Shown in pieces: positions 1,188 through 57,518 of a stretch of 64,000 nt of DNA. This stretch comes from Proteromonas lacertae (lineage: Eukaryota), in assembly GCA_002245135.1 (NCBI GenBank), contig NGBS01001164.1:1-64000 (forward strand). Reading direction: 5' to 3'. The notes under the pieces are model-generated. The model had not been told where the DNA came from, searched no databases, and saw only the letters and a program-made list of their open reading frames with translations. A program made the position numbers and the translations under genes. Within the stretch, counting starts at the first letter, position 1. The number at the start of each line of letters is the position of its first letter.

Positions 1188-2349
1188 ATGGGGAATAAAG
1201 AGACTAAGCAGGACGAAATAGCTTCTGAAAATCTAGTCATCAGTGAATTTACAAAAATAACTCCTCTTGAGAATAGACCATGTGGTAGTTTGTTTCTTGC
1301 TGTTCATACTAAACGTAATAATGGTATTAGTAATATATTATAGTGGTAAATATTGTGGACTTAAGAAATACGTGAAAACAGCTTTAATCACAGAGAATAA
1401 AATAAATGTGATATTAAATGAGAGATCGATAATGATACAGCTATATCACCCATTTATAGTTAATTTGTATAGCAGTACATGTAATTATTTAGAATGCACG
1501 CATTTCAAGACGATGATTATTGTTATTTTGTCGAAGATTATTGTCCAGGAGGATCAATGTCTTATCTCATCGATCATACATCTAACGGTAAATTATCAGA
1601 ATCAGAAGCACAGTTCTATATATGCTGTATATTATTTGCACTAGAATATATTCATTCAAAAGGAATTGTTCATAGAACATTAACACTTGATAATTTATTG
1701 ATTGATTATACAGGTTACTGTAAATTAACAAACTTTTATTATGCATGTGAAAATGGTAAACAAGCAGTTTCAATACCAAATGATAATCCCAATGTAAATG
1801 ATTGTTATATTGCACCTGAAGTAAAACAAATCAATAATCTTTCTTCATTTACTTCTGATTTCTATTCAGTTGGAGTTTGTTTGTATATATTATTAACAGG
1901 GAAAATACCAAAATCAAATCCTAAAAATGATCTTACGGTTATAAAATCAAGTTGTTCAACTGATGTGAATGATTTCTTGGAGAATATATTAGTAAGTGAT
2001 CAGTATCAACGATTAGGATGCAAGTATTACTATTTTAATATTATTTAATAGTAGTGGTATAAAACAGATTCTTCAACATCCATGGATAAAGGAATATACA
2101 TGGTCAAATGTGAGAAAGAAAGATCAAACACCAGCTATACATATTGATGTTTCACAAACAAGATATAATTCAGATAAAGTAGTTATTCCTTCAGTAATAA
2201 CTACTTCAAAACCTAATTTAAGCGATATTTTTAAAGATTATAATTACAAAGAAACTGTAAATGTTTCTGAAGAGCAACAATTGTCTGATTTGATAAAGTC
2301 AAGTGATATTACTGCTGAGTTTTATTCAGGTGGAATTAATCAAATTTAA
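1188..2349 (+). CDS. AGC-like probable pseudokinase, N-myristoylation-type start (MGNKET)
   Basis: Introns at 1315-1343 (needs one extra A before the donor to keep frame), 1467-1492 and 2024-2051. The kinase scaffold is recognisable (NERSIMIQLYHPFIVNL, AFQDD, YCPGG, YIAPE, RLG..HPW), but HRD reads HRT, DFG reads NFY and there is no Gly loop. Confidence 0.8.
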
Positions 2350-5717: not shown

Positions 5718-7919
5718 ATGGGAACATCACCTAGTTTTATTAAAGAGTGCACTTACATCGTCCCAAATTCTGCAGACTATGAGCATGGATACGTATATTG
5801 CTTCATTTGATTTATAGGGACCGATCTACAGACATAGTGGTTGTGAAAATGGTTTGGTAGAAAATAAATGGCCTGACTGTTATACACTCTATGATTTGTT
5901 CAAGTATATAATAGTTGTTTCTTACTTCTTATAGTTATGGAAGTAAACATTATGGTAAAGAACCTTGTTTTGGTAGAAGACGTCTTATAGATGGAAAATT
6001 AGAAAGAGTCTTTACATTCTTTACGTATTGTAACTCATTTACAAATTATTTAGATATTTTGAGGTTGGACAAATGGTTAAAAGTTTTGGAAGTGGTTTAA
6101 AAAACCTAAAATTAGTAAATGCAATAAAAGGAGATGGAGTTCACAAGAAACAAGATGGTAGTGATTTTGAATGTATAGGTATCTACTGTCGTAATTGTTA
6201 TGAATGGTGTGTTTGTGAGTATGGTAGTTTCTATAATAACTATACAATTGTTCCATTATACGATACATTAGGAGCTGATGGTTTAAGTGTAATTTTAGAT
6301 GAAGTTGGTTTTAGTACGATAATGTGTGGTGAAAAGGAATTAACCAATTTAATCAACCTCTTGGAAACTCAAAAACATGATACTTTAAAGAATGTTATTA
6401 CTGTTGATGAATTATCAGAAGAATTAAAGAAAAAAATCAAAGATTTAAACTTGAATTTATTCACTTTCAATGATATAATAGAAAGTGGAAAAGAACATCC
6501 AATTAGTGAAAATGAATTGTCTTTACCAAAGAGAGAAGATACTGCATTAATTATTTATACAAGTGGATCTACTGGAACTCCAAAAGGTGTTGTTATCTAT
6601 CACAGATGTTTAGCTTCATTAGCTCAATCCAGTCAACTACATGATGATAGAACGATGGGTGTAACTGGTGATTTTTATATATCCTACTTACCATTACCAC
6701 ATGTATTTGAACAGTTTATTATTGGAAATATTCTAAGTGCTGGTGGTGCTATTGGTTTTTATAGTGGTGATAAGAGACTATTGATGGAAGATATATTTAT
6801 ACTAAAACCAACTATATTTGCATCTGTTCCAAGAATATTCAGTAGAATGAAAGATCAAATTGAAATGACTGTTAAGAAAACTGGTGGATTTGTAGAGACA
6901 ATGTTTAATAAGGCAATTACTGCAAAACAAGCTGCTTTAGATGATGGATACTTAACTAACAGACTATATGATAAATTGGTATTTTCAAAGATTAAAGCCA
7001 AGCTTGGATTTGACAGAATAAGATGGATAGTAAGTGGTTCAGCTCCATTACCAATTGATACTTGTAGATTCTTACGATGTGTATTTGGTTGTCCATTATT
7101 TGAAGGTTATGGTATGACAGAATCAGGAGGAGGTATTTGCTGTGGTGAATTAGACGATGTTTCACGATTTGGTAGTTGTGGAGGACCAACTCATTGCTGT
7201 GAAATGAGATTAGTATCAGTACCAGAGAAACATTATTCTGTTGAAGATAAAGAACATACTAGTAATACTGGTACAATAGTATGTGATGGAAGGGGTGAGA
7301 TATGTTTAAGAGGTTTTAATGTTACTCCAGGTTATTTTAATAGACCTGATTTAACTAAAGAGACTATAGATGAAGAAGGGTGGTTTCATACTGGAGATAT
7401 TGGTTTGTGGGATGATAAAGGAACAATCCATGTGATTGATAGAAAGAAGAATATATTGAAACTATCTCAAGGTGAATATGTAGCTATAGAATCATTAGAA
7501 AATGTATTTATATTTGTTATATTATTATTATTAATTAGATATATCAATCATCTCAATATGTTGATCAAATATTTGTATATGGTGATAGTTATAAGAGTTG
7601 TTTAGTTGCAATTATTGTTCCTGATTATGGTAGTTTGAAATTATGGTGCAAGGAGAAAGGATATAGAGAAGAAAGCTTTCAATCATTATGTCAGAGTGAT
7701 GCAGTTAAAGAATTAATACAAAATGACTTATTAAGAGTTTGGAAAGAAAAGAAATTGAATGGTATAGAAAGATTAGCTGCTATTAGTATTCATTCTGATG
7801 CTTTTACAGTTGAAGATAACTTATTAACACCTACAATGAAACTTCGAAGAAATGATTTATCATCTAGATATAAAACTGAAATTGATCAATTGTATGAAGA
7901 TGTAAAGAATAAAAAGTGA
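5718..7919 (+). CDS. ACSL: Long-chain acyl-CoA synthetase (ACSL/LACS)
   Basis: AMP-binding motif IIYTSGSTGTPKGV, plus SYLPLPHVFE, EGYGMTE, GWFHTGDIG, IDRKKNILKLSQGEYVA and C-terminal LLTPTMKLRR. The 5' exons (MGTSPSF...HGY|GPIYRH) are joined by short introns such as 5793-5817. Confidence 0.95.
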
Positions 7920-8067: not shown

Positions 8068-11000
8068 CTATTTAACATTTGCATATTCATTGGATGGAGT
8101 AACAATCAACATCTTCTCATGCAAAGCTGTTCTACTTGATTTAACAATCATATTCTTTGTAGATTCTTGACTCTCTTTATTTGATTCTTTTGATCCACCT
8201 GATTTAAAATCTTGAGATGCTGGTGTAAAATCTGATAAAGCCATTTTCAAACTTTGTTTTTCATTTCTACAAACATGGGCACTAGAATTGACTGAGAGAT
8301 TATATGATTCTGCTCTTGAACTACCACTCTTTGGGTATATATGTGAATTCTTCTTTATAAATCCAGATCTATATATATATGAATTAATAACAGTAAATAT
8401 ATATACGAAGAACCATTACTATCTGTTGGTGATATATCATCATTTACTTTCAATGTTCCATCTACGTTTTCTAAAACTGTTTTATCTTTTACATACACAT
8501 TACGATTCAATAATGACTGACAAGTTCCGTTTTCATCACTCTTTATATTCTCTAATCTTATCTTTTTGGATACTGGTATAACATTTCTTGATTCTTCATT
8601 TATCCCATGCAAATCTGTTCTTGGTGAATGCTTAGTCATTGATTTTGGAGGGAAAAATGGACTATATTTAGAAGAATCAGATGTCTTAGATTTAGATTCT
8701 TTAGCATTCTGAGCATTTAAATAATACAAATGTAATTTTTCTCCCATAATTATTACAGATATGAATGTAGAAACTAATGATATTCCCATTCCTATTAATA
8801 TTTTTTTCATACTGAAATCTGAAATAAACAAAGAGGAAGGAGCTATAATTAATACCCCAAATATTACAGAAAAATTAAAGATCTTAAATAATATGTATAG
8901 AAAAAGATATATATAACAATTGCTGAATAAGTTATACTCATCGATTCATTAAACTCTGGATCAGCATTTCTCAATCTAAAACTAGAGTAAAGCAGCATTA
9001 AATAAAATGTTAAAAACACAATTATTGCAATAACTCCAAGTGGAATATTAAATACACAACTCTTAATTATTACTGTTCTTTCTACTGTAGTATCATCTCC
9101 AACAATTTCTGTTTTTATACTATTAAATGAAATAATATATATTGATAATATACCTTGGCTGAACAGCGAAATTCCATATTATTGTGTATATTGTAAATAG
9201 TATAGTAATTATCATTACATTATAGAATAAATCGAACTGAGTCACTTTTACTTTTTTAATTCCTGTATTATTCAACACTTTATGCACTTTAAAAATCTTT
9301 ATAAATAAAGTTGATAGTAACAAAATTGCAGAAAAAAGGAAACAAATAATCTGCCCTATACAATGTGTTTCATTTTCAGGTATGATACTTAAATACATAG
9401 CCGAAAATGATAAAAATACTGAGGAGATTATTACTAAAATACAAAATACAGGAAAAGCTCTTCTTATAATCTTCGATTTTCTTTTCACTATTACAAAGAC
9501 TAAAAATGATAAGTTTAATAATCCATTTATTACATTAGCAGCATATATAATTTCATCAATCCCTTTTCCAGCACTAAATAACAAAATGGGAGGTCCATAA
9601 TATGGTAAATCATTTTGATCTTTTCTGTATGATGTTGGATATGTTGCAATTACTGATAATGTTAAATGATTATTAATTTGACTATAGTAATGATCATGAA
9701 TAATTATATTAGAAGTGGCAATACTTACCTGAACTCCATAATTTAAAAAACTGTTCTTGTACAACAGATACCTAAATATAGTCTTATCTATATTAACATA
9801 TTCCTTTTTATATCCAACACACAAATCTATTCCTTTAGATAACATTTTCATTGCTAATGATGAGTAATATATAAAATCATTCACATGAATTTGATTATAA
9901 GAATTATCTTTAATTAAATTGTTATAACTTTTTGTTACTAAATTGTAAGGCATATAAGAATAAATTACATAATGATGCTTTAATGTATTCTGATAATTAA
10001 GAAATACATCATAATCTGGAAATACGAAATGCATTGTAATAGATGAACTTGTCAACTCTAAATTCTCATATGCACTGATTATATTTCTCAAACATTCTTC
10101 ACCAAAGTGAATTACAATTACTATAACATTTATTATTAATTCATATAGATATTATACCTGCAATCTTTTCATTTGATGTTGAATATTCTCTAAACCTTTC
10201 TTTCACGATTTCTTCAGCATTTATACATTCATCAAGTACTATTACATCCAATAGATTATACTCATTTCTCATTGTTTTGTTCAACATATCCAATCTAAGT
10301 AGAATTAAGAAAAACAATCAAATCATCAAATAGAATAAAGAAAAAAGATATACAGGACATTTTGATAAACCAATCAAAATAACATTCTTCATCATCATCT
10401 TTTTAAATTGATCATCTATAATATCATACGCTACAGTATCAACAAACGAAAATGAAATGATATTACTTTGTAACAAACTCTGTTTTGTTCCACCTGTTAT
10501 GTGGAATAATAAAGTTCTATTAAAATCATATCTTACTTTTTCAAGATTATATGGGAATATAAAACCAACATATGCAAAATATTCATCTTGATTACTTTCA
10601 ACTATTTCTTTTAATTCATCTGTTGTAGTATAACTCTTTGAGAATAATTGAAATCTATAATCATATATTTTTTCTTTATTAATTTCATTCATTTGGTAGT
10701 AAAATGTTAAAAACATATTAATTGATATCATTGGTTCAACAGGAGAAAGAATAAACAATATCTTAAATACATATTGATCTTTAGCAGCAACATCTACATC
10801 TAATAAACATCTTTTGGTATTAGAATAAGGATTATAATTGTAAGGATATATCGGTGTTTCTTGTGAATATTCTAGAATGAATTTTGGTTTTCTATAAGTT
10901 GTTTTTATTTTTGAAACAAACAACAATTGTTCAGGTTTTCTACCTACTGTAATATATACTAAACCATATGGACTTATTGTCTTTAAATTATTGTTAAAAA

Positions 11001-14000
11001 CATACCATAAATGATCATTTATTTCAAGCCCATTTGCATCATTAAACAATCGATTCATCAATTGCATTGTCGTTATTGCTATATGTTGTGGATATTCAAT
11101 TATATAACTATCTGAATATATATGTTCATATGCAATTGATATATCTCGTGATACACTACTATATTTATAGTTCAAATCTGTATTACTAGTATTTGCTAAA
11201 CTATCAAAATATGGACTAATAATATAGAAATTATTTATAAGATATAAGTCTCTAGTTTCAATTTGTAAAGTACATAAATCTGTAACTATCATATTACTAC
11301 TACTATTAAATAATTTTATAAACCATTCAAATGTTTCAGCATCAATATGCAAAACAGGACCAAATAGTAATAGAATAACATCTGTATTATTCTTTAATAG
11401 ATTAATAATTGGCTTTTCTGATAATCTATTATTTAAATCAAACGACAAAGATCTAATATCTTTAAACGGATAGTTTGATAATTGAGGGTATAGAGATGTG
11501 AAATATCCTGAATATTCTTCATTATAAATGATTGTAATATATCTGTTTTTCTTTATCACGAAATTGGTGAAATGATATCCAAGTTCATATGGAAAATAAT
11601 TCATAAATAATATATTCTTTTCGCATACTTCTCCAGGATGAGGCAATAAGTATACAAGTATCTTATTTGTATGATATAATAGTGGCAAAAAATACTGTTG
11701 TACATATTTATAGTTCAAAACAGCAAGGAAAACTGTTGTTTTTATACTTTCAAAAGATGCTATTATATCTTTATAATAGTACATTTGTAAATGTATATAA
11801 TGATCTAAAATTCCACCTTTCATATTCATATCTCCTATATATCTGTTAACAGAAGATACATAAGCTCTTTCATAAGGTGTCATATCCACTAAAGGATTTT
11901 CTAATATTATTCCAAAGAAGAATAATTCCTTTACATATACATACTGCTTGCTAGGATCATCGTTATTATCACCACCTTCATTATAATCAACTACACTTAT
12001 TTTTCCTGATGTAATATTCTTTTTATGACATATTTCATGGAATTGTATTAGTCCATGTCTGATAGTATATTTATCTTCCTTATAATTAATAAAGTAAAGA
12101 TCTCTTTTAACAATATTTGAATGAGATATAGAAATAGTAGAATAAGGTGTTTCAATTGATATATTATACATTGGCAAATCTTTTATTGTGTAACTATTGT
12201 ATGAAAATAGACGCTTTATATATTCTACATATATCAATGCTACAAATGATTCTTCATTTTCTATATCTTTTTGATGTTCTTGTCCTTCTTTTGATTCACT
12301 ATATTTCTCAAAATATTCATAAACTAGATAATCTGTGATGTTATTATCAAATATATATCCTTGTTGTTGAATAGATTTATTAATACCATATTTGTCATAT
12401 GTTACAATTATATAATTACTTATTTCTGCTCTACATGAAGCTAATGCTGTTAATGACAGTCTTTCACTACATGTATAAAACACTTTGTTACGATGAAGGA
12501 ATAAATCATCTTCTTGACAAATACTATCAGCAAAATACTTTAAAACATGTTTGTATAAAAGACTAATAACATTGAAGGATTCTGTTCCAACATAATTAAC
12601 AATGAAATTATCTATATCCTTTTCATAATCTTCTTCATCCACTAAATAATATATCACATCTAAGAAATATAATTCAGCTTTTATTCTTTTAACTAATACT
12701 TCTGACATTTGACTATATATTACAATGATTTTATTATAATAATGATTATTGGTAATATATTCAACAGCAGGAAAAATGGCTTGTAATGCACTTGATGAGC
12801 ATATTAAATTCTTTGATACTATACAATCTATACATGGATATATATTAAAGTAAAGAATTTCAGTACCATCAACGTATTTTTTCACTAATTCAGTTTCATA
12901 TTTTGACATTCCTCCAATAACCACTTTCAATCTTTTCATACTTAAAAGTGATGTAAATGCTCGAAGAAAATCAGAATTTGTATAACAATCATAAGTTACA
13001 ATAAATGTATATAATTCTTCTATAAATAAAATAAATTTATATATAAATATACCATTCATAATATAGTAATTAATTGCGTTTACAATAGTCAATACAACTG
13101 GTCTTGTATAACTAATTAAATCATCATCATTAACACTAAATAACAATCCAATTATATTAAACTGAACTTTTGTTGTTGAAGTCTCTTTTTTATCATAATC
13201 CACTATACACAGCAATCCTGAATAAGTGCCCATATACCAAGGATAAGGATAGATATATGATTCAATTTCACCAGAATAAGCTTTAACAAATTTCAATTTA
13301 TCACTATCATCTACTAAAACTACATACAGATCATTTGTAGATGATAAATATTTATTTATATATTGTTCATGTAATCCAATTCTGTATTTCTTATTCACTA
13401 TCTCCTCTAAATTATACAACAAATTGAATTTTCCAATTGATTTAACAATAGTAAAATACAATTCCATAGCATTATATCCAATATAATTAAAATATGTTGG
13501 AGTTCTATTATACGACCTATAAAATCCATTTTCGAAATCCATAAAATTCAATTCCAATAAATCAGCAAAATATCTATCTATTGAAAAAACATTTCGTGTA
13601 TTATAACTAGCATTACTATAATATCTAAATAAATCTAATGTGCAGAATGAGAAAGTGTCTAATTTACTCTTTGATGATATATAGTTAAAAACTGATGGTG
13701 ATAAATATGGTATTGTATTTAATACTAATACATCACTATCAAATACTCCATCTAAAAAGTTTCTGACGCTGTTTATTGTTGGATTAACCAATATCATACT
13801 ACGAAATCCTAATATCTTGGAATAACTTCTGAATAAATTGGAATAGACATCATTTATATCTACAGCTAATAAGAGAATGTGTTTTACATTTTTTGCATAG
13901 AAATGATTTAACAATGTTGTCATGACATTAGCTTTATTCTTAACAGTAGAGAAAATATGAGTACTACAAGTTCCAACATCATCATTAAATGAAAATAACA

Positions 14001-17000
14001 CTCTATTATTCTTAGTGAGGAATGGCTCCATGAATATTGTACATTCCTTTGTAGTACATCCGAAGAATACTACCATATCAGATAAACTTGAATAATAGTC
14101 CAGATAATAATCTATAAGCGGTGATTCTATAAACGTAGTTGTCATTCCATTCAACATATTGTTATATTTATTCATTGTATAAGACATTCCTCTAAATATT
14201 TGACTTAAATTTTCTGAGCCATCATCTATAAAGACAAATACAACCATTTCTCCAAGATTTGTACCATAATACACATCACATTTTAGTTGATACAAAACAT
14301 TATGATTATAATGATAATAAGGATTTGCTTCAATGATATTACCAGATGTGTAAGCTAATTTAACACCTAACCTATTGGTGTTATTATAAAATCTTCCAAT
14401 TCTGATAGTTCTCGATATATGATTTGAATAATCTAACAATATTAATCCTTCTGGAGCTTCATATTCTAAAATAATTGGATCATTACCTATTGCTGTATGA
14501 GTCAAATAAAAATAAAACTCAAACATATAAGCGGCAGTAAAAGCAACAGAACTAACATTTGAAAGTTTTAAATAACTAAATACTGATTCATCAGTCCAAA
14601 TTGAATAATAAGGTAGATGATATTCAGGATGATAATTACATACAAAGTGATTATTGATTAAATATTCTATTGGATATTGCAAAGATGAGAAATAATCCAT
14701 ATTAATATCAAATATTTCATATTCAAATTCACTATACAATTTTGAATATCTATATAGCTCACCATAGAATTTTAAACTATTCGTTCTATTCAAATCTACT
14801 ATTAAAGCACATTTTGTATTTCTTAATCTAATCTCATCAAATATAACTCTATATTGTTTTTCATTAATATAATAAACCTCAGCATAATCAACATAATGCG
14901 AATTCATTGCACAATCAAAAAACTCAGATGAATACCATCCCTGTAAACTATCATCTTTATCAATGATTAAGTTAGTATTTGTGATTTTTGAAGAATCAAT
15001 AAAATCTCCAATTGTTACTACCTTTTGATGAAGTGGCATTCCTAAAATAATGAAGTTCTTATTATAACATTCCTGATAAGTTGTATCATACACATACAAA
15101 AATAATGTTTCTGTACTTTCCACTGCTTTTGATATAATTTCTCTTGCTCGTAATGATGGATATCCACCAAATATTGCAGTTACTTTATTATCAATTAATT
15201 CCTTTATTATACTATACAATTTCTGCATATCATCACCACAATCATAAGAACTGATGATATACTTTGTGTCATATGACAAAAAATAGGTAAAAAAGTCTGA
15301 AGATAATGTAAAAGCATATGCTACACTTGAATATATATCTTTGTATTTACCAGTAAAAGGATGAACAAAAGCAATACGAGTAGTATATGGAAATAATACC
15401 TTTTCAGCATTTTCATCACAATAATAAAAATTGTCATGATAAGTTATTGAAAAAGGATGTGGATAGTAATTATTAGCTTCTTCATTAAGTTGAACCAATT
15501 TCGTTCCTTCCTTATTGTAATATCTTATAATCACTTTTTGAGAAACATACAAATCATAAGTAATTGAAATAGAACCTAAAACAGTTTCATAATCTCTTAT
15601 TAGTGTTATTTCTTTAATTGAATTAAACGATATTGTATTTTCACTCAAATAATTTGAATATAATATTTGTGTTAATGCAAACAAAATAGCACTATTATCA
15701 TCGTATAACATTTCCATTCCAAAATAACTTTGAAGAAAATGAATATAACTAACAGTAAGAGTAAATGAACTCCTAGGATAAAAGTTTTCTAAATATAACA
15801 CCCTATTGTATACAATTGTATCTCTCAACTGTAAGTAAATAAATTCTGGTGAATTTTTAATCAGCATATAATACAATACATTATCATCACTTAATAAGTA
15901 TTTATATCCTAATCGAATTAATTCTTTATTTAAATTATCATCATCCACTAGTAATACAATTAATCCACCATATGGAATATCTCTTCTAATACCTTCGAAT
16001 AAATGGAAAATCTTTAATGTTGATGTATCAGAGGATGAAATTCTATATATCAACTCAGTGATATTATAATATGATAGTATCTTTATCACCATATCTATAT
16101 AAGTTACAGAATATTCACTATCATCTACAATAAAACAAATTGGTTTATCCCATTTCTGTAAATGTATAAACAAAGACATTATTTCTTGTGATGCTATACT
16201 TCCACCAAATATTCTAATATTATTATATAAACAATATATATTCTATACATATTATGAGGACACATTTCACCTATTGTTTGATATGGATATAAAAAAGGAA
16301 CATCTTTGCCAATTAAGTAAGATTGAAAAAATGTGATACATTCTTCATAATAACAACCTGCAATAGATGAAATAGTATAATTATTCAGATATTCATCTAA
16401 AACACCTTTATAATCATTAAGTTTCAATGGAGAATCATATTGTAACATCAAAATTCTCTATTGCATAATATTATTATGATAAATATATACCATTGTTACA
16501 TTGTGAGTCAATGACATATTATAAGTTGCAGATACATAACCTTGTAATGTAACAAAATCATGTAAATTATCACCATTGTATAAATACAGTAAATAGTAAA
16601 CTTTTGATTCTACTAATTCACCAAATTCACATCTATATACATCATCGTTCATCAATTCATTATTGGGATTTCTTATATCAAAAGGATGAATCATATTTCC
16701 TTTATTATTGAATTTTGTATTAAATAGCGGAGATATTAAGTTAGAATTTGTCCTATGACTTAATTTAAATTCTTTATTTATAATTTGAATTACATAAACA
16801 TTACTAGCTATGCTTTGAGATCTAGTAAACACAATACTATCTTTTGCACTATCTATCAATAGGTTATTTTTATTTCTTATAAACTGTATTGATGAGTATA
16901 AATCAAGAATATAGGTGTGAATATAAAATGAATTATTTACAGCGTATGGAAATGTATGGTTAAAAACTTCAAACTTTCTTCCATAATCTTCAAACGCAGT

Positions 17001-20000
17001 ATGAAGTTTAGTATTACTTTGTATATTTAAATTATTGTGATATGTTGAGATGATATAAACATTATCTAATTTGTCTAAATAGTGCAATACATCTGCTTCA
17101 TCATTCTTCACTATAACGAAAGTAACATCAGATAATAATGGAGATATTTGAGCATTTGTACCTGCTTCTAGTGTAGAAATAAGATATGATCCTTTACATT
17201 CTGCATTAATCTTTGGAATAGTAATAGTCAGAATATCATTATCTGAATAATAAAATAAAATGTTAAATCTAATGTAAAGTACATTTCCTTTTAAATGTTT
17301 GAGTAAATTCTTTGAATAACTATATAATATAAATTGCTACTTAATTATACATATCATCATAACCAATTATACATAAATTCATTTCTTTTCTTTCATACAG
17401 CGCTGTCAAAGATAATGTAACATTATTTATTCCAGCAATTGTCTGTTCTAATGAATCTCCCATCTATTATTAATATAATATTGATATAAATACATTTATG
17501 TAATTAGAATAGCATAATTTTTCAGAATAATACCAATAATTGACAACTAAAGAATCTGTGTCTTTTATATCATCTTTAAATTTATACATAAATTCATCTC
17601 TATAAACATATAACATAAATCGACATGAATATATACGTTAATGGAAGTATAAGGTAGGATATTTCACTTTTAATATGGTTAACTGTATTGAATACATTTT
17701 TCATACAGTTATAATCATCAATTCTACAAGAATAATAAAACAATTTTGGAAGAACTTCATTTATTCCCATTATAAACATGTCTTGAACTAAATTAAATAC
17801 AGAATAATAGAAATAGAGTGAATTCTCTGTTTGATGTGGAAATATTATATGAACATAAGCCATAGGCATAATACTTATCTTAGACTCTAATCCATCACAT
17901 TTTTCAATGGTTTTAGATGTGAAATTATAGTCATAACCATAAGTATTTTGAACAAATGGTGAAGTAACTATTGTTTTAATGTTATAATCATTATTAGTAT
18001 TATCAATTAAATAAAGAGATGTGAAGCCCATTGTATAAAAATTACTACCAATTGCTGTTCCATTTGCTTCTACATCTTCAACAGTAAAACAATGCTTATA
18101 CTCGTTTGAGTAATAGCTTGTACATCTCTTTATTGCATCAATTATCATTTTTACAGCATTTTTACCTATTCTGTAGTCAATTGTATATTTTGGATCGAAT
18201 TTTATATAATATTTGATGGGAATTACAGATTCATCAACGGGATTGTTACTATTCATTGAAATGAAATAGAAGTTATTAATATTAATCTTATAAGCAAAAT
18301 ATTTATAAGGTGATGAATGACTAAATGAAATGAATAAACTCAAATTTGGATTTCCATCATATAGTTTAAAAAACTCATATGAACATTTACCTTGAGCTCC
18401 ATGTAAGATAAGATGAACTATAAACAATATAAATATTATTATTATTATATATATACCTTTACTTTCTGCTTTTAATATATTCACAACTTCTTGAGTATTT
18501 GACAAGTCTTGTTTTAACTGATAGTACCTTACTAGATATATAATCATATAATCACTACTCTCAATCATATTATATAAATAATCACCATATCTTCCTTCAG
18601 AATAAACTACATATAATATTTTATAATCCAGAGTTTTAGGTATTCTATTATAATCAACAGAGATGAAGAAATGAAATTGTGAGTATATTATAGAATTGAG
18701 AAATACTACATGCGAATTACATATATTACCTTCTGTTTCTTCAACATCAAAAAGCAAAATATCCAATCTATCAAGAGTTGGTAGTATTTCAGAAAGTAAA
18801 TCACTTTCTATTGCTGCGAAAACTGTATCTAATTTGTACATAGATGAAAAGTTATTTAACTACATAATATAATAACAAAAACTAATTAAAATACTAATTC
18901 ATTTAATTCATCTACTGAATCTGGAATTGTCTTTTTTATAATCCTCAAAGTATATATGTTTTCACTTTTAGAGAAATATGTAAATTCTGATGCTATTACA
19001 TCCAGTGAAGATGCAATTCCATCAACTTTTTCATTCATATATTCACTGTACAGAATAGCTACATACTTTACATCTAATGTTTCTATATTACATAATTCTT
19101 GATGAGTTATATTCGATATTATTGGTGAATATGATCTATCATCTAAATCAGAATATACATTAAACTTCTGAACCATATCCAATTTATTTGCATTATTTAC
19201 TTTAAACAGATAATAATCAGAATAAAAGAAGTTATTCTCACTAAAATATAATATTGTCTCTGGAGTAGTAACATTCTTTCTATATTCCTTCTTTATAATA
19301 ACACCATCATAAAATACCATTTTATCAATACAATCAAGCCAATGTTTCATCATATAATATGTCATATACAGTGATATTGATATTGTATCTGAATCACCAT
19401 ATTCTGATTGATATAATTGTGTAAATTCTGATGATTCAATATCTTCAACATAATTCATAAATAAATAATTACTTACAGCATTTGCATTGGATGAATATAC
19501 ACTTTTTACTGAATCATCAAGTGAATAAATAACAACTCCATTAACACTTTCACTATTTAGTTTATTGAGTAGATTATCAGTGTCTGTTCCTATTAATGAT
19601 GAAACAATACTTCCTCCATTTGGTAACATTTGCTTGATTTTACTTACAGCATCATCTACAGAAGTGAATGTGATTGATCCACGATATTTAACACTTTTAA
19701 AATTGTAATTATTTGATGGGAGAAACAAATTATCAAAACCATCTGATAAATCACTTTCATAATTCAAAATTACGGTATTTCCATTCAATTGTGACAATAA
19801 CATATGAATTTCATGAATGAATGTACCAGCATATATTGAGTATTTACTACACTGCATGTTTGTATAAATATCTGGAATTATAAGCAGTACTTTACTATCA
19901 AGATTCATGTCATAAATTTGCTCCCGACATAGAGGATTTGAGTATAAAAATAAAAGATGTAGTGCTTTAGAATACACATAATCTGCTACAGTCTTACATT

Positions 20001-20214
20001 CATTAGCATTTGTTATATTCTTGTTTATAAATATAAAATTGTTACTATTTGATTGGTGTGTATGATTTGAAAATGCAAGATTAAAGGATTTATAAATTAA
20101 CTCTGACATCTTAAGATATGAAGGTGTAACATCAAGTACAACACCTACATTGATATTTTGTGTGATTAATGCTGATGAAAAAGTTAGATATATAAAGAAA
20201 ATTAACAAATACAT
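8068..20214 (-). CDS. Giant class C (GABA-B-like 7tm_3) receptor with ~9 tandem periplasmic-binding-protein type I (Venus flytrap; UrtA/AmiC-like) modules, ~3,900 aa
   Basis: Signal peptide MYLLIFFIYLTFSSA at 20214. Co-oriented ORFs 18886-20319, 17600-18841, 16458-17111, 16194-16451, 10318-16179, 9123-10091, 8355-8831 and 8068-8250 are separated by intron-like gaps (18860-18894 and 8369-8406 checked in frame). Repeated motif G(G/C)xxS..L(F/L)Y....xxC.xN. The 7TM region has KRKSKIIRRAFPVFCILVII, CIGQ...LFIKIFKVHKVL and FRLRNADPEFNESMSI, followed by a Ser-rich cytosolic tail. Confidence 0.85.
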
Positions 20215-43849: not shown

Positions 43850-44692
43850 TTACACTTTACTGTCAAAGTTAACATAATCATATCCTTCGAAAGGGTTATT
43901 TTCCAATATTATTCCAGATCTATCTTGTTCCATTGGTTCTTCATCGTAAGGATCGAAATTAGAAGTATCACCAGCACTTGTTACTTTTGGTATATATATT
44001 GGTTTGACTTGTTTATTATACATATTCTCCCAATCAATTTTTGAATAGAAACTATGGGTTTTAATATCATCCACTCCATTCTTCAAACAACCTAATCTCT
44101 CAGTCAGATCTGATGATAATAACTTCTTTATCAAATCTCTTGTATTATCTTGGATGAATTTTGGCACTATTATTTTGTTTTTAACTATCAATTGATAAAC
44201 TTGCATTGGATCATCTGCATAGAAGGGCGGTTCTCCTACCATTGTTTCATAAATCAATACACCGAGTGTCCACCAATCAACACCAGTGCCATGACCTTTA
44301 TTTAGTATAATCTCTGGAGCTAAATATTCAGGTGTTCCACATAATGTGTAAGTTTTGAAATCTACTTTTTTAGCGAAGCCAAAATCAGTTATTTTGATAA
44401 ATCCATGTTTGTCAATTAATAGATTCTCTGGCTTTAAGTCTCTATATACAATATTCAGTTGATGTAAATAATCAAAAGCTAGGACTATCTGTGATGTAAA
44501 AAATGCTGTTTCATCTGCATCAAGCAATCCCTTGAGATTTAAATATGAAAAAAATTCTCCTCCAGGAACATACTCCATCAAAAGATATAAAGATTTGGCA
44601 TCTTGAAAAGCAGCTTTTGTTAAGACAATGAATGGATGATAAATTTGTACCAGTATATTTTTCTCATCCATGATATGTCTTATTTGCTTTTG
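43850..44692 (-). CDS. PKA-C: cAMP-dependent protein kinase catalytic subunit, 3' part (downstream of transposon insertion)
   Basis: QKQIRHIMDEK, MEYVPGGEFFSYL, YRDLKPENLL, TDFGFAK, TYTLCGTPEYLAPE and DTSNFDPY. The Gly loop and VAIK region are absent here and lie at 49645-49882. Confidence 0.92.
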   Translation of the reverse strand, partial: QKQIRHIMDEKNILVQIYHPFIVLTKAAFQDAKSLYLLMEYVPGGEFFSYLNLKGLLDADETAFFTSQIVLAFDYLHQLNIVYRDLKPENLLIDKHGFIKITDFGFAKKVDFKTYTLCGTPEYLAPEIILNKGHGTGVDWWTLGVLIYETMVGEPPFYADDPMQVYQLIVKNKIIVPKFIQDNTRDLIKKLLSSDLTERLGCLKNGVDDIKTHSFYSKIDWENMYNKQVKPIYIPKVTSAGDTSNFDPYDEEPMEQDRSGIILENNPFEGYDYVNFDSKV

Positions 44693-44694
44693 TT

Positions 44695-44713
44695 CACGAT
44701 AAGAATTTTCTAA
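44695..44713 (+). repeat. Left terminal inverted repeat of CACTA-like element
   Basis: CACGATAAGAATTTTCTAA pairs with the right end read as CACTATAAGAATT--CTAA. Confidence 0.85.
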
Positions 44714-45299
44714 GTGCTTTTTGTGACTTTAAATAGATTTTTCTCAATAACTATAAGGAATAAAATAGTAAAAATTTGTCAAACGATGTATCATGCTTTG
44801 AGCTTTATCATAGTATACTTAGTTTCATAATTACCTCTTTCATGTCATTCGTCTGTTTTTGATATGTTACATTATAATTGAATAACAACAAACATAAATA
44901 ATAACATTGATATATTTTTATTTGATTTATATCATTTATTAGCTTTAAAAACTATAATACATCTCGAACTGTACTGATTTTAAATACCACGTATTTGGCT
45001 AATAGGGACTGAAATATGTTAATAAATTTTATACGTAATCACTACCTATATACGATATGTATAGTATAGGAGTATTCCAGAAAGGACGATATTAATTTTG
45101 ACTAGGTAATTGAATGTAATCGTGATATTATGTGATTTTTGATGTATGTGTGTGTAGTTAAATAGAGCCATATTGCTATTTTTGACTAATTGCTTCTAAT
45201 TAAGAAGATATCAAAATATTTTTCATACCAGCACTATATGCTGTACTATTATGTTAATCTGAATAGCTAAACCCCATAAATACACTGTATAACATATAT

Positions 45300-50016: not shown

Positions 50017-51165
50017 CTACATCTGGTCCTTCATTTTTGGCTCTAAATCATAACCTGCTGTTGATAATAAATCATAAACTGGTTGTCCATTCTCATCTAC
50101 TTCAACCTTAGTATTGTAATTATAGTTTGCAAATAATTCTTGATGTTCTGGTGATAATTTCTCCTTTGGGGCTTCTTCCACATCAAATGCATCACCTAAA
50201 TCATTCTTACCAGTATCACAATTGGCTTTCTTTATATCCGGTTTAAATGGTGCATCCATATCCTTCTTTCTAAACGAAGCCCAATCAAAATGACTAAACC
50301 ATTCATGTTCAATTAAGTCTTTCACTCCATTCTTATGTCCTAATCGTGTATGACAATCACTCTCTAAAGTTCCAACTAAGAAAGAAGAAGCAGCTGGTGA
50401 TAGTTCAACTCCCATTCTTTTAACAGCATCACTAGGATCTAATTGATCATTGGAATGGCCTTGAAACTCGAATGGCCATTTACCACAAAGAAATTCATAG
50501 GTAACTATTCCAACTGAATAGAATTCTGATATTCGGTTATGTTTATGATCACTATGTAAGATCTCTGGTGCCATATAGGCTCTAGTACCACTACCAGCAT
50601 AACAATAACCATCTTCTTTCAATTTCTGAGATATACCAAAATCGGTTAGACGAATATAACCATTTGCATCTAATAACATATTATCTGGCTTTATATCTCT
50701 ATGAATTATATGTTTTGAATGTAAATATTCTAATGCTAATAATAAGCAGGCTATGTAGAATTTGGTAGATTCTTCGTCAAAATGACCTTGTGGATTATGT
50801 CTTAATTGATATCTTAAATCTCCACCTAAACAGAGATCCATTACCATATAACAATTATTATCATCTTGAAATGCATAAAACATATTTACAAGGAAGGGAT
50901 TATGAACATCTACCAATAGATTCCGTTCATTCATGATCATATCTGCATTTTGTGTCTTAATAACCTCTAATTTTTCTAATGTTTTAATTGCATACCATTT
51001 ACCTCTATACATATTATTAAATATGATAATTAAATACGTCGGCTTGTGAACACAGGCATTAACCTTACCAAAACCACCTTGACCAACTACTCTTTCAATG
51101 CTGAAATGTGTTTTATTAACATGTGTTGGATCTATTATTTCTTCAGAACTAGAACCGCATCCCAT
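50017..51165 (-). CDS. AGC-family Ser/Thr kinase (STK32/YANK-like) with N-terminal acylation motif MGCGSS
   Basis: VGQGGFGKV, YAIK, MDLCLGGDLRYQL, HRDIKPDN, TDFG, GTRAYMAPE and KANCD. A 33-nt in-frame intron at 51005-51037 is read through in the ORF track. Confidence 0.92.
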   Translation of the reverse strand: MGCGSSSEEIIDPTHVNKTHFSIERVVGQGGFGKVNACVHKPTYLIIIFNNMYRGKWYAIKTLEKLEVIKTQNADMIMNERNLLVDVHNPFLVNMFYAFQDDNNCYMVMDLCLGGDLRYQLRHNPQGHFDEESTKFYIACLLLALEYLHSKHIIHRDIKPDNMLLDANGYIRLTDFGISQKLKEDGYCYAGSGTRAYMAPEILHSDHKHNRISEFYSVGIVTYEFLCGKWPFEFQGHSNDQLDPSDAVKRMGVELSPAASSFLVGTLESDCHTRLGHKNGVKDLIEHEWFSHFDWASFRKKDMDAPFKPDIKKANCDTGKNDLGDAFDVEEAPKEKLSPEHQELFANYNYNTKVEVDENGQPVYDLLSTAGYDLEPKMKDQM

Positions 51166-51536
51166 TATACTTTTTTTTTCTATTAGAAAAATATTAGAAA
51201 AGAAGGAAATAGAAGATTTGAAGTTTTATTAATAAAACATAACAAAATAAATAAACGTAAAAATATATTCATACTGATAAATAGTGAAATATTGAGATAA
51301 ATAAGTTTAAAACGAGAGAAAAAAACAAAAACGATGTTTCTGTTTGTTTGGCTTGATATTTTCAGTTATTCTACTTTTTTATAAACACATGATTATTTTG
51401 ATGGATAGTGTGTGAAAATGGTTTGAATTTTTGAATCTAATTATAAAATTATTCTAATATTTAATTAAAAACACTGTTATATCATTTTATAAAATGAAAA
51501 TATATTCGTTTCATTATTTTTTGATTTTTTATTTTG

Positions 51537-52613: not shown

Positions 52614-55600
52614 TTATTTGACATTAAACATTTCTTTCTTTTCTTCTTCTGAAATTCCATCTATTTGTATTACTCTAATAAATGAAAATGTAACTAAAAA
52701 TTCTTTTAATACTGATTTATCAATGTTCTCTTTCACTGTTATATCCAATTCAATTGTTTTACTAAAGATATAGTAATTTTCTATTATTAATCTTATTCCA
52801 ATTTCATTTAATACATTTCCTGATAAATTTATATAGTTTAATGGTGTACAGTCTTTTAGATTTTGTATTAATATTTTCAATCCTTTTTCACTCATTCCTA
52901 TATCTATTCATTCATTAATATATACTATATTCATAATATACATGAAAGATTTAAATAATATTTGCAATAAGTTAAATTATCTGCTTCTATAAATTTATAT
53001 AAATTCTTACATATTATCTCTACTCCTTCATCTCCAATTGGATTGTTAAATATGGAGATATTATAAACATCTTCTAATAAAGAATCTGTTAATTCTTTTA
53101 ATCCTTTGTAACTGATTTTATTGTTTGATAAATTAAGATAAAAATTATTTACATGTTTAATTAATGAAATGCGAGAATCATTGATGTTTAAATCTATTTT
53201 ATGAGAATCTAATAGACTATACCTGAAAAATTGTAGCACATTCTTTTCTTTTTTATATAGTAGTTTAAATAATATTCCAATTTTTCATTTGTCCACGATG
53301 AATTATTCATTTGAATAATTGGATATTCTTCTTTTTCTAGTGATTTTGAACATATAGCTTTTAATCCATTCATTCTGATATTATTTCCTTTTAGATTTAT
53401 TTTACAATATTCTTCAACTGAATCTATTTTATCTGCTAATAACATTACACTTTCATCATCTATTAAAATATTACTCAAATTAATTTCACTCCAATTTATT
53501 AACTCTTTTAGCTTATGTAATAAGTTTTTAAATCCATTATTACGAATTGGATTATCTATTACATAAATATAAATTATAAAGTTGAATATACTATGAATTT
53601 TTATACTATAAATATTACGATTTTCTTTCATAAAATTCATCAAGTATTCTATGCCATTAGAATCTATTTCATTATCGCTAATATCAAGCTTGATTCTCAT
53701 ATTAGTATTTTTTAAACCATCTAACAAATATTTCAACCCAATTGAAGACAATCCTATTTCTAGTCAAATATTAACAGAAATTATTATACTAGAACATTTC
53801 AATGTGCTGAATGAATCTTCTAATAAATGTAAATATGGCGATAACATTTTCATTCCTGTGTCTCCTATTTCATTTCCATATAATTGAAGATGTTTAAGAT
53901 TTGAAAATGAAGGTAAACTATCTATTAATATTTCTATATTTTTAAGAGTTAGTCTATTATCTATATAATAGAAAACTATCAGATTATACTACTCAAATCT
54001 AATCTTTTTATTTTTCCTAACTCATTTAATCTAAACAAAATGAATGATTTGATAAAATCATCATCAATTTCAGAATTACTCAAATTTAATCCATTTTCAT
54101 CTAAATAACCTTGGTTAATGTATGCTATTATTTTTGGAATATCTTTATCCACTAATAATTCTTTACTTTTATTAAGATCAAATTCTATTTTTGAAATTGG
54201 AAATTTGGAGAATAATGCTTTTAATCCAATGGAATGAATATAACTGTTTTTTGTTATATCGATTTTGTAAAGACTTTGATATTTATATAATTCTTCTGAT
54301 AATAATATCATTGATTCATCATTTAATCCCATTTCATAAAGATCTAATTCATTTTTTTGTTGATTAATAAATGTAAATATGGAATTAATAATTTGAAGCC
54401 TTTTGAACCAATTGGATTATCTATATCAAATAATAAGAAAATATTAAATACATCTTAGATTTACATATTTTAATTTAATCATGAATGGAATTGATTTAAC
54501 AAATGATTGAATGAAATGAAAAGTAAGATTACAACTATATAAATCTAATTTTTGAAGATATGATAATCGGTTAAAAAATAGTCCAAATAATGATTGGAAT
54601 TGAAATGGGATGTTAACCTCATCTAAATTATAAAAACGGTTAAAATTATACCAAATCTTAGTTTTATTGGATTAATTAGTTTCATTATTCTCAACAAATA
54701 ATTCATTCCTTCTTCACATAAACATACACAACTTGGACTTATTGTGACTCTTTTGTTATCACATTCATTATGTTCTGCATTAAATAGCATGCAATCTAAA
54801 TAATAATCTTTTCTTTCTTTACATGTATGATAAATATGAAATTTCAGCTCATATTTTATATACCAATCATTATTGTATAACTTCATCATTAACAATATTG
54901 AAAATATTCTGTCATTTGGTTTATTATTGTAAGAATCTGTAAATCTGTTTCTAATTTCATGCCTTTTTTTACTTTCAAGATAATATTCTGTTGGATATGT
55001 TATTGGTAATATAACAATAAATTCATCATCATAATGTAACATTTCTTTTCTTTCTTCACACATCATTAAACAATCTTCATCATCTCTCAATATTTCACTC
55101 ATCTTTATCATCTCTTTTTTCAACTCTTTTAAACTCAATTTATCTTCACTTCTTATTTTTAACATTCTATCTACCATTTCTTTCATTCTATCATCACATT
55201 CTACTTCAAAACTGTATTTACATCTCTGGATATTATTCAATGTTTTATTCACATTATTATCTTCATTGAATGGTAATTTCTTACAAATCATCTCATATAA
55301 TATACATCCAATTGACCAAATTACACTTCTCTCATTACATTCTAATCCATTCAACTCTTCTGGACTTTTGAAACACAAATCATAAACTCTCATATCTTCT
55401 TCTTTTCTCAAATTATTTAAGAATAAATCACACAACTTGATACTGTTATCCATTATTATGTTTGAACTTTCAAATTACTTATCACTAAATCATATTCGCT
55501 CAATATCAACAATATATCACATACTGGATATATTACTGTGAAAATTTCAACACTTGATAGAGAGTCACTCTGAATTATCTCTTCTAAATCTACAGAATAA

Positions 55601-55812
55601 TAATTTCTTTCTAATGTTATTATATTATCCCCGGAAAAGTGGATTTGATAAGGTGAAGTAAATGAAGAACAACATTCTAACAACAACGAGTTATTCTCTA
55701 AAAAATTCGTTATTTGTTTTACTCTTATTCCACTAATATTTATAGTTTTCACCTTTCTTGTATGAATCTGATTCTTTTTAACTAAAACATTATTTTCTAC
55801 TTTCTTTTTCAT
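52614..55812 (-). CDS. Degenerate kinase domain fused to RNI-like leucine-rich repeats
   Basis: Kinase C-lobe motifs SPEELNG and SVIWSIGCILYEMICKKLPF, with a degenerate catalytic loop (ISNLKV..NIIMD, IKLCDLF). Downstream LRRs include LDISDNEIDSNGIEYL, INLKGNNIRMNGLKAI, LNLSNNKISYKGLKEL and NNPIGDEGVEII. Many short introns and two apparent one-A frameshifts. Confidence 0.8.
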
Positions 55813-56057: not shown

Positions 56058-57432
56058 TTAAGCATAATACATCAAAGAGGCTTTCTTCTTCGAAGCTACT
56101 TGATTTATACCTTCCATAAAATCTTCATGTTCTATTGAATTGGCATTTCGTCTTAAAGCCAACATTCCAGCTTCTACACATACTGCTTTTAATTGAGCTC
56201 CATTATAATCTTCAGTACATCGAGCCAATTCTTCATAATTCACATCTATTTATTATATTATATTATATATACTATCTTGATCTACATTCATCTTTCGACT
56301 GTGAATTCTCAAAATTCGAGCTCGAGCTTCTTCAGTGGGTAAAGGCAATTCAATCTTTCGATCTAATCGACCACTTCTCATCAAAGCAGGATCTAATATA
56401 TCAGGACGATTAGTAGCAGCTATCACTTTGATTTTATTATTAGTTGTAAATCCATCTAATTGACTTAACAACTCTAACATTGTCCTTTGAACTTCTCGAT
56501 CTCCAGATTGATCACTATCAAACCTCTTTGTACCTATTGCATCTAACTCATCTATAAATATTATTGCACCACTTCGACCAGCTTCTATCTTCTCTTTAGC
56601 TAAAGCAAACGCATCTCGAATCATTTTTGGACCATCACCAATAAATTTTTGAACCAATTGAGGACCAGCTAATTTTAAGAATACTGCATCTGTATCTTTA
56701 GCACAAGCTCGAGCTAATAATGTTTTACCTGTTCCTGGAGGTCCATGTAACAACACACCTTTTGGAGGCTTAATTCCTAGTTTTATAAATGCATCTGCTT
56801 GTCTTAATGGTAATACAACTGCTTCTATTAATTCTTGGATTTGTTTATCTAAACCACCTATATCACTGTATTCTTCTTGAGGCTTTTCATCTACTTCCAT
56901 CGCTTTTACACGACTATCATATTCTACTGGTAGTTTATCCAATATTAAATAAGAATCTTTATTCACTCCTACTAAATCATTAGGTTCTAATGTTTTTGGA
57001 TCTACTAAACCGACAGCTGGTAAAAATATTGTTTGTCTGCTCGTAGTTTTGATTACTGCACTTAGATTGTTACCTTTTATTTCTTCATCGATAGCTTGGC
57101 CATCTTCTTCTACATCATCTTTTAAATCAAGAAGCTAGTGATATAATAACATATAGAAGATATAGAAAATATATACTTCAACAACATTTGATACTAAAAA
57201 AGGTAATAGTTTATTGGCTTTGATCTTTGCTTTATTCTCTTCACCTTCTTGCTTGTATTTTCGAATTTTCATAGTGATGGCATGAATATTTGAAGACATG
57301 ATTGAAATTTCACTATCTAAAAGCATATTCTTCTGTCTTATGTCATCGTTAGTCATAGCAGCTAACTCTGTATCGAAATCAACAGATGGTTCTATGCGGA
57401 TATAAAATAAAAATAATTATACCTGTTTCCAT
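56058..57432 (-). CDS. RPT5: 26S proteasome AAA-ATPase subunit Rpt5 (6A)
   Basis: [73 protein letters not shown] and C-terminal HbYX tail LMYYA. Three short introns. Confidence 0.97.
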
Positions 57433-57518
57433 TGAATGTAAGAAAGAAGAAAGAAAAAATGCTTATGGTGTTTGAAACAGATTTTTTCACTAAACCAGAA
57501 AATTTAAAAATATAAAAA
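57433..57518. promoter_or_regulatory. 86-bp divergent intergenic region (candidate bidirectional promoter) between RPT5 and NPHP4
   Basis: Head-to-head ATGs at 57432 (-) and 57519 (+). Confidence 0.5.

Follow-up and report, generated by a model that had tools for sequence, protein, structure and literature searches.

G-protein-coupled receptors (GPCRs) of class C are taught as carrying one flytrap per chain, and GPR156 has no flytrap. The periplasmic binding proteins UrtA and AmiC are soluble single domains, unlike the chain described here. In stramenopiles, diatom class C receptors join a 7tm_3 domain to a type I periplasmic binding protein (PBP-I) module, as predicted for the present locus, in proteins of 300 to about 1,000 amino acids (aa) (PMC3727952). 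We analyzed a stretch of 64,000 nucleotides (nt) from Proteromonas lacertae (GenBank assembly GCA_002245135.1, contig NGBS01001164.1, positions 1 to 64,000; hereafter the window; GC content 26.7%) and identified one minus-strand gene that is predicted to encode a GABA-B-like class C receptor of 3,886 aa in which a nine-module ectodomain precedes a single seven-helix (7TM) domain.

The gene model, drawn from DNA, runs from an ATG at 20214 to a TAG at 8068–8070 with 13 introns and a single terminal stop, across a series of minus-strand open reading frames (ORFs) interrupted by AT-rich introns (Table 1). Eleven of the 13 predicted introns are GT-AG and 30–39 nt long, the junctions at 10351 and 8910 are best read as non-canonical, and an automatic splice search limited to 26–51-nt GT-YAG introns found no path through the gene. 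The protein reads from a hydrophobic N-terminus through nine modules of about 380 aa and the class C 7TM domain to a Ser/Thr-rich tail. A first-pass annotation of this DNA had picked out nine module-start motifs and several 7TM motifs, and all of them fall within one minus-strand spliced frame; its Ser-rich tail is likewise present, and its signal peptide agrees with the hydropathy of the N-terminus and stands as a prediction. The units are in tandem as proposed, with sizes adjusted from about 390 aa to a mean of about 379 aa (362–401 aa) and the ectodomain from about 3,500 to about 3,410 aa.

Modules 1, 5, 6 and 8 are type I periplasmic binding proteins by direct family or fold match, with UrtA the best match by sequence. 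The top sequence matches of modules 1, 5 and 6 are UrtA (TIGR03407; PDB 7s6e, 7s6f, 8hic and 8tg1) and AmiC (1pea), with which the window modules have E-C and E-G motifs in common. A Peripla_BP_6 profile search, proposed as a check in the first-pass annotation, matched module 5 with 37.5 bits against a cut-off of 31.7, and a profile of module 5 orthologs aligns full length to UrtA structures (E 1e-8 to 7e-7). The ESM Atlas matches of module 1 are Peripla_BP_6 clusters; its TIGR03407 score of 23.7 bits, like the 38.7 bits of P0011, an ortholog of module 6, lies far under the family cut-off of 492.75 bits. Structural alignment with VIA-align places the AlphaFold model of module 6 on 4maa (Z 22.3, root-mean-square deviation (rmsd) 3.9, 306 residues aligned) and on UrtA 7s6e (Z 20.7, rmsd 4.7, 331 aligned), UrtA giving the longest alignments (331–332 residues), and places module 8 on GluK3 (6jfy; Z 15.2, rmsd 3.7, 295 aligned) and GABA-B2 (Z 14.6).

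For modules 2, 3, 4 and 7 we infer the same fold from internal similarity and a shared cysteine pair. Self-BLASTP of the protein detected no repeats; despite this the repeats exceed chance, because a Cys pair at offsets 97–108 and 350–381 is common to modules 1–8, a count of 8 of 9, whereas no more than 6 of 9 was reached by any of 300 shuffles in which the windows were placed freely. Profile alignment with hhalign joined modules 4 and 5 at 88% in one direction and 40% in the other and modules 5 and 7 at 90–92%, with 81 reversed controls at or below 6%; only these two pairs scored high, and modules 1, 2, 3 and 9 reached at most 11%. Leave-one-out hidden Markov models (HMMs) gave modules 2, 3, 4 and 8 higher scores than either the shuffles or the control proteins, including module 2 at 1.7 bits (maxima −6.0 for shuffles and −2.1 for control proteins) and module 3 at 8.5 bits (−10.5 and −0.6). 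Modules 5, 6 and 7 exceeded shuffles but not control proteins, and modules 1 and 9 exceeded neither; module 1 fell short in another leave-one-out HMM test as well. Module 2 is further linked to module 8 by a Smith–Waterman (SW) z of 5.1, and module 7 has a beta-alpha pattern in both AlphaFold models, with its 33-nt intron stretch corresponding to a gap in ortholog P0009. Module 9 lacks both cysteines of the pair, and the predicted strand-helix order of its N-terminal half is the same as in modules 6 and 8. The earlier claim of nine UrtA/AmiC-like modules thus holds directly for modules 1, 5, 6 and 8 and through internal similarity for modules 2, 3, 4 and 7, and finds no backing in sequence for module 9.

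The membrane domain conforms to the class C family, as first proposed. Pfam 7tm_3 (PF00003) matched on two exons (E 3e-12, 47.2 bits against a cut-off of 33.5, and E 4.1e-5) and on ortholog P0031 (E 7.9e-19, 68.7 bits), hydropathy outlines seven hydrophobic helices at aa 3436–3678, and the best PDB matches of the 7TM profile are GABA-B2 (9jqx, E 2.9e-4) and GPR156 (8yk0, E 2e-3); the exon of transmembrane helices (TM) 5–6 searched alone had no PDB match. Intracellular loop 1 (ICL1) and TM3-ICL2 are almost invariant across orthologs. Class C activation residues comprise a basic TM3 end and an acidic TM6 start, and a P-K motif is described for TM7 (PMC3727952). The window receptor shares the first two with GABA-B2 and GPR156: the TM3 sequence K-I-F-K-V-H-K is kept in 7 of 7 rows except for an F/W change, and F-N-E of TM6 is present in the window and in P0031 and P0033. 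TM7 reads G-E-K-L, keeping the Lys but missing the Pro of the class C P-K motif. The extracellular cysteine pair of class C receptors is also present, with a Cys ahead of TM3 in all rows and one in extracellular loop 2 in the window and P0031. We found no NCD3G-type Pfam match and no Cys cluster ahead of TM1, features of the mGluR/CaSR/T1R subgroup.

Relatives with the same architecture, which the first-pass annotation suggested seeking, are represented by colinear orthologous exons in six sequence clusters at 26–64% identity, including modules 4–9 in P0001, P0009 and P0010, so that the array is old and has been maintained. These orthologs are assembly ORFs that stop at introns, and the full count of nine modules is accordingly shown for the window only. 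A search with the 1,974-aa exon returned 2 proteins among 7,986 candidates (63%), the exon spanning module 9 and the 7TM domain matched 4 of 2,666 candidates (50–79%), and the large-exon ortholog P0005 and the 7TM-exon ortholog P0030 are both listed on a 10,726-bp contig, probably the same one. HMMER comparison of modules 5–7 with 1.84 billion representatives gave five matches, all colinear pieces of this gene (28–63%), with no bacterial match at E 0.001 and no paralog family. Among longer proteins the 7TM domain was found in none of 620 candidates, a weak test that covered only 600–2000 aa. Metagenome DNA of relatives gave 82 and 590 pattern matches with none confirmed, and ortholog splice sites are known from protein only.

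Phylogenetic analysis of 31 module sequences groups the modules by position and not by lineage (modules 4, 6, 7 and 8 at 100/100, module 5 at 87/93), so that each module has long filled a role of its own. Module 5 has the shortest stem in this tree, from which fragments under 280 aa were excluded and in which modules 1, 2, 3 and 9 are one long-branch row each; the tree does not order the duplications. Identity to the closest orthologs is 53–66% for modules 4–8, 61–74% for the covered part of the 7TM domain and 73–81% for module 9, which is the most conserved module and points to one transducer module instead of nine equal inputs.

The UrtA family provides a reference for ligand pockets. Urea is bound in UrtA by W120, S122, Y141, Q144, E146, Y190, N246 and S274 (PMC10392092). 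Mapped through the ortholog profile alignment, module 5, the closest window module, reads Y, S, Y, D, T, D, N and N at these positions and keeps three of the eight residues (S, Y and N), so the pocket for urea is incomplete; at the Tyr141 and Asp equivalents, all six orthologs with coverage show no change (28–64% identity). In module 4, motif matching at three checked positions finds Tyr and Gln of the Y-x-x-Q motif of UrtA retained, and in the other modules the pocket motifs are missing, as judged by eye on the module alignment. Urea binding is therefore unlikely as read from these positions, and module 5 likely has a remodelled polar pocket that would make it the best candidate for a ligand-binding module.

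The explanation we favor, somewhat better than evenly balanced, is that the ectodomain is a long antenna in which a few modules bind solutes, the rest form a stalk and module 9 transduces to the 7TM domain. A bacterial binding protein of the UrtA/AmiC type is the likely source of the nine-module chain. A few modules, with module 5 the best candidate, would bind small solutes, the module 5 ligand probably being polar and amide-like, and the other modules would serve as stalk and dimer scaffold. A putative disulfide in each distal module would tie its C-terminal linker to its own N-lobe and stiffen the chain, the receptor would dimerize as other class C receptors do, and module 9 would pass a conformational change to the seven-helix domain, with signalling onward by way of a heterotrimeric G protein or of an arrestin-like adaptor bound to the Ser/Thr-rich tail. 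The bacterial sensor BvgS offers support for an antenna with a juxtamembrane transducer, since of its two tandem flytraps it is the one nearer the membrane that binds modulators, and the authors of that work remark that distal signals may be dissipated along linear chains (PMC4352136).

Several observations weigh against this model. Splicing is read from DNA, and the module 9 junction requires a non-canonical intron. Module 9, the proposed transducer, gives no sequence sign of a PBP fold by HMM, hhalign or Pfam, and its leave-one-out score of −17.9 bits is under the shuffle maximum of −12.0. The AlphaFold models in which modules 6 and 8 align to PBP-I folds have low overall confidence (mean predicted local distance difference test scores 53.5 and 49.8; predicted template-modelling scores 0.38 and 0.35). 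Fractions of invariant columns are alike in modules 4–9 (0.13–0.22), as multiplexed sensing would likewise predict, which argues that the distal modules are not freely drifting spacers. Eight published Blastocystis genomes lack G-alpha.

The invariant fractions bear on a reading close to the first-pass annotation, in which the array is a multiplexed chemosensor: most or all nine modules would bind different solutes and a dimer would integrate them into one 7TM output. Early divergence of the modules with conservation of each by position fits such a receptor, as does the proposal that BvgS homologs, with one to five tandem flytraps, integrate several signals (PMC4352136). A conserved pocket-like motif is nevertheless present only in module 5 and partly in module 4, conservation is highest at module 9 and the 7TM domain, and we found no precedent for coupling across eight hinges; the class C-like 7TM domain behind a tandem array is retained from the earlier proposal, and nine pockets with multiplexed output we consider unlikely.

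Module 5 also informs a second alternative, that the receptor binds no small solutes and acts in adhesion or mechanical sensing, its chain, roughly 50 nm by estimate when extended, crossing the surface coat to bind bacteria, mucus or neighbouring cells so that a pull activates the 7TM domain. The altered urea pocket, the 30 N-glycosylation sequons in the receptor, the upstream neighbour, which is another giant repeat surface protein, and a report of GABA-B activation by force (PMC12595035) are all in keeping with such a role. Polar cleft residues in module 5 that stay invariant over 28–64% identity would be needless in a pure spacer, and we regard this alternative as quite improbable.

Linkage of flytraps and 7TM domain in one chain depends on a predicted non-canonical intron within module 9. 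All ten ectodomain introns lie within modules (eight in modules 2–7 and two in module 9, at offsets 39–196), and as none falls at a module boundary, mistaken joining of neighbouring genes is unlikely. The exon 10120-9154 holds the C-terminal half of module 9 and TM1–4 in a single ORF, an arrangement also found in four ortholog clusters. After K-C-P in module 9 the frame runs into a TGA near 10320, and the junction has no in-frame GT-AG or GC-AG intron under 93 nt. U12-type introns have the donor ATATCC/TTT at the 5′ end and a branch point shortly before the 3′ end; AT-AG is among the termini of minor introns. The predicted 57-nt intron at 10351 has the donor ATATCTTT and a branch-point-like TTCTTAAT 10 nt upstream of its AG at 10295. 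In three other clusters the orthologous ORFs finish P-I-Y-L-F or P-I-Y-H-F and diverge thereafter; an AT donor fits these orthologs and a GT donor does not, because Ile cannot supply GT, and the pattern x-x/A TAT C-x-x TT fits all. A minor-spliceosome-like AT-AG intron is thus predicted to fit both the junction and the orthologs. GA-AG introns of 30 and 33 nt are also in frame here, and an AT-AC intron at 10351-10299 was rejected as out of frame.

The second candidate, in TM6, would end at AA 8864 and place a Pro 22 residues past the F of F-N-E, presumably the class C spacing. In ortholog P0031 the I-Y-I-F-F is retained, and Leu stands at the position for which a GT donor (8917) would require Val; a GT-AG intron of 35 nt and a GC-AG intron of 41 nt are alternatives that are also in frame, and the protein would remain continuous under several intron readings at both sites. 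As a caveat, a branch-like motif accompanies 9 of the 49 donor-like sites in the window, and an Rfam search of the window found no match and no small nuclear RNA. Blastocystis ST1 has hundreds of minor introns as well as rare GA-AG introns (PMC5608401, PMC10639083), and AT-AA is the commonest non-canonical minor terminus (PMC5608401).

On a two-gene or broken-gene reading, the TGA near 10320 would close a secreted protein of 8.4 modules and the 7TM domain would have a short gene to itself; this would account for the missing short in-frame GT-AG intron and for the four orthologous ORF clusters that likewise stop just past the junction, and merged adjacent genes are a known annotation error in Blastocystis (PMC10690189), but such a break is very unlikely, as it would halve a module and leave the 7TM part without a signal peptide, conservation reaches the junction and picks up again beyond it, ortholog ends vary like intron sequence (near-identical members differ by V/I) and have in common the Y-L/H-F of the minor-intron donor, and the exact end motif TGTTTGTT occurs at no junction. 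Matches to TGTTTGTT with one mismatch number two, near 18894 and within the 10351 intron, with another further out near 13052.

Table 1. Predicted features of the receptor gene, in window positions
Feature	Position	Strand	Basis and remarks
Whole predicted receptor gene	8068..20214	-	14 exons, 3,886 aa, spliced model from DNA
Exons 1-5	20214-18895, 18859-18457, 18417-17637, 17599-17494, 17463-17351	-	predicted splicing
Exons 6-10	17319-16491, 16457-16249, 16213-13053, 13019-10352, 10294-10158	-	predicted splicing
Exons 11-14	10120-9154, 9119-8911, 8863-8407, 8368-8068	-	predicted splicing
Likely signal peptide	20170..20214	-	hydropathy 1.67 over aa 1-19; first ATG of ORF
Module 1, PBP-I, UrtA-like	19078..20163	-	TIGR03407 UrtA E 2e-5; PDB UrtA 7s6e E 0.0022; ESM Atlas 0.96
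Module 2, putative PBP-I, two introns	17870..19077	-	leave-one-out HMM, SW, Cys pair; weak to moderate
Module 3, putative PBP-I, three introns	16611..17869	-	leave-one-out HMM, Cys pair; moderate
Module 4, PBP-I, two introns	15391..16610	-	leave-one-out HMM 31.6 bits; hhalign to module 5
Module 5, UrtA-like PBP-I, remodelled cleft	14257..15390	-	Pfam PF13458 (Peripla_BP_6) E 2.8e-9; Atlas 0.94
Module 6, PBP-I	13168..14256	-	AlphaFold model and VIA-align; ortholog P0011 TIGR03407 E 5e-10
Module 7, PBP-I, one 33-nt in-frame intron	11932..13167	-	hhalign 90-92% to module 5, 142 columns
Module 8, PBP-I	10780..11931	-	VIA-align; leave-one-out HMM 25.7 bits
Module 9, juxtamembrane, putative PBP-I	9573..10779	-	371 aa; placed by position and predicted secondary structure
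Predicted minor (U12)-type intron, AT...AG, 57 nt	10295..10351	-	joins module 9 halves, frame kept
Class C (7tm_3) seven-helix domain, GABA-B2/GPR156-like	8737..9572	-	Pfam, ortholog P0031, PDB
Second candidate minor-type intron in TM6, AT...AA, 47 nt	8864..8910	-	donor ATATCTTTT
Cytoplasmic Ser/Thr-rich tail, one intron	8068..8736	-	212 aa, 22% Ser+Thr

The surrounding window encodes further genes. Upstream at 20372-41660 (-), a gene ending 155 nt from the receptor on the same strand encodes a giant surface protein that crosses the membrane once, measures about 7,000 aa (one ORF of 6,929 aa) and is rich in repeats of the putative-Ig (He_PIG), PA14 and HRM-like kinds. Together with the short introns and the GC content, this protein and the 155-nt spacing suggest the Blastocystis/Proteromonas group. 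Tail-to-tail with the receptor and ending about 150 nt from its stop, the gene at 6034-7919 (+) encodes an enzyme of the AMP-binding family (Pfam E 2.9e-63) that is probably a long-chain acyl-CoA synthetase. Protein kinase ORFs lie at 43850-44728 (-), 50017-51225 (-), 1485-2048 (+) and 54623-55474 (-); the first presumably resembles the PKA catalytic subunit, of note as Blastocystis is reported to lack nucleotide cyclases. A kinase-like domain followed by leucine-rich-repeat exons occupies 52614-55812 (-), and a 26S proteasome AAA ATPase subunit 56058-57416 (-). The multi-exon gene at 57516-62508 (+) may resemble nephrocystin-4, a ciliary transition-zone protein; searches of Pfam and PDB gave no match.

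Published gene counts differ between Proteromonas and Blastocystis. For Proteromonas lacertae, 116 entries of the family-3 C-terminal type and 182 of the PBP-I type are recorded (PMC10690189), and multi-module receptors may occur elsewhere in this organism. Among the rows of the same source, counts of family-3 GPCRs, G-alpha and nephrocystin-4 are all 0 in eight Blastocystis proteomes, against 116, 7 and 1 in Proteromonas; published GC content is 27.0% in Proteromonas, 21–23% in tortoise Blastocystis and 39–55% in human Blastocystis. The receptor bears on possible chemical gut sensing by Blastocystis and relatives, for which the published Blastocystis proteomes list neither a class C receptor nor G-alpha. 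A bolder and doubtful proposal is that one ancient gut-stramenopile receptor senses a number of gut solutes simultaneously, its nine domesticated bacterial urea/amide-binding domains forming a chain braced by disulfides; if it belonged to a Blastocystis lineage, a genus from which all class C receptors and G-alpha subunits are reported lost, it would signal without a G protein and would have been overlooked because two non-canonical minor introns break gene models.

We found no printed description of this architecture, in line with the first-pass annotation, which did not recognize it. No class C receptor that carries a second flytrap came up in a literature search, and the available text of PMC3971589, PMC3727952, PMC12716839, PMC12842992 and PMC12965686 deals with class C or flytrap receptors and does not mention tandem arrays. 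Tandem flytraps occur in another protist receptor family, the trypanosome receptor adenylate cyclases, which are single-pass proteins with cyclase output and have two such domains against nine here. BvgS-family flytraps belong to a different PBP class. As proposed for the window receptor, tandem flytraps in BvgS-family sensor kinases feed one output and the proximal domain is special, but BvgS is a bacterial histidine kinase with a single transmembrane segment and at most five flytraps (PMC4352136), and the five of BvgS homologs are the largest tandem count we found in print for any flytrap receptor. Compared with GABA-B2, the window receptor is likewise predicted to join a PBP-I module to TM1 without a cysteine-rich domain, and it differs in having nine predicted flytraps instead of one and in modules that by sequence are nearest to UrtA and not to ANF-type flytraps. 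It would be a case in which a bacterial urea/amide-binding protein was independently recruited to serve as the ectodomain of a GPCR. Nine UrtA-like modules on a class C 7TM domain appear to be unique, apparently a real, conserved and undescribed variant of class C receptors, and a nine-module receptor that is colinear at 26–64% identity provides a natural test of the reach of clamshell allostery.

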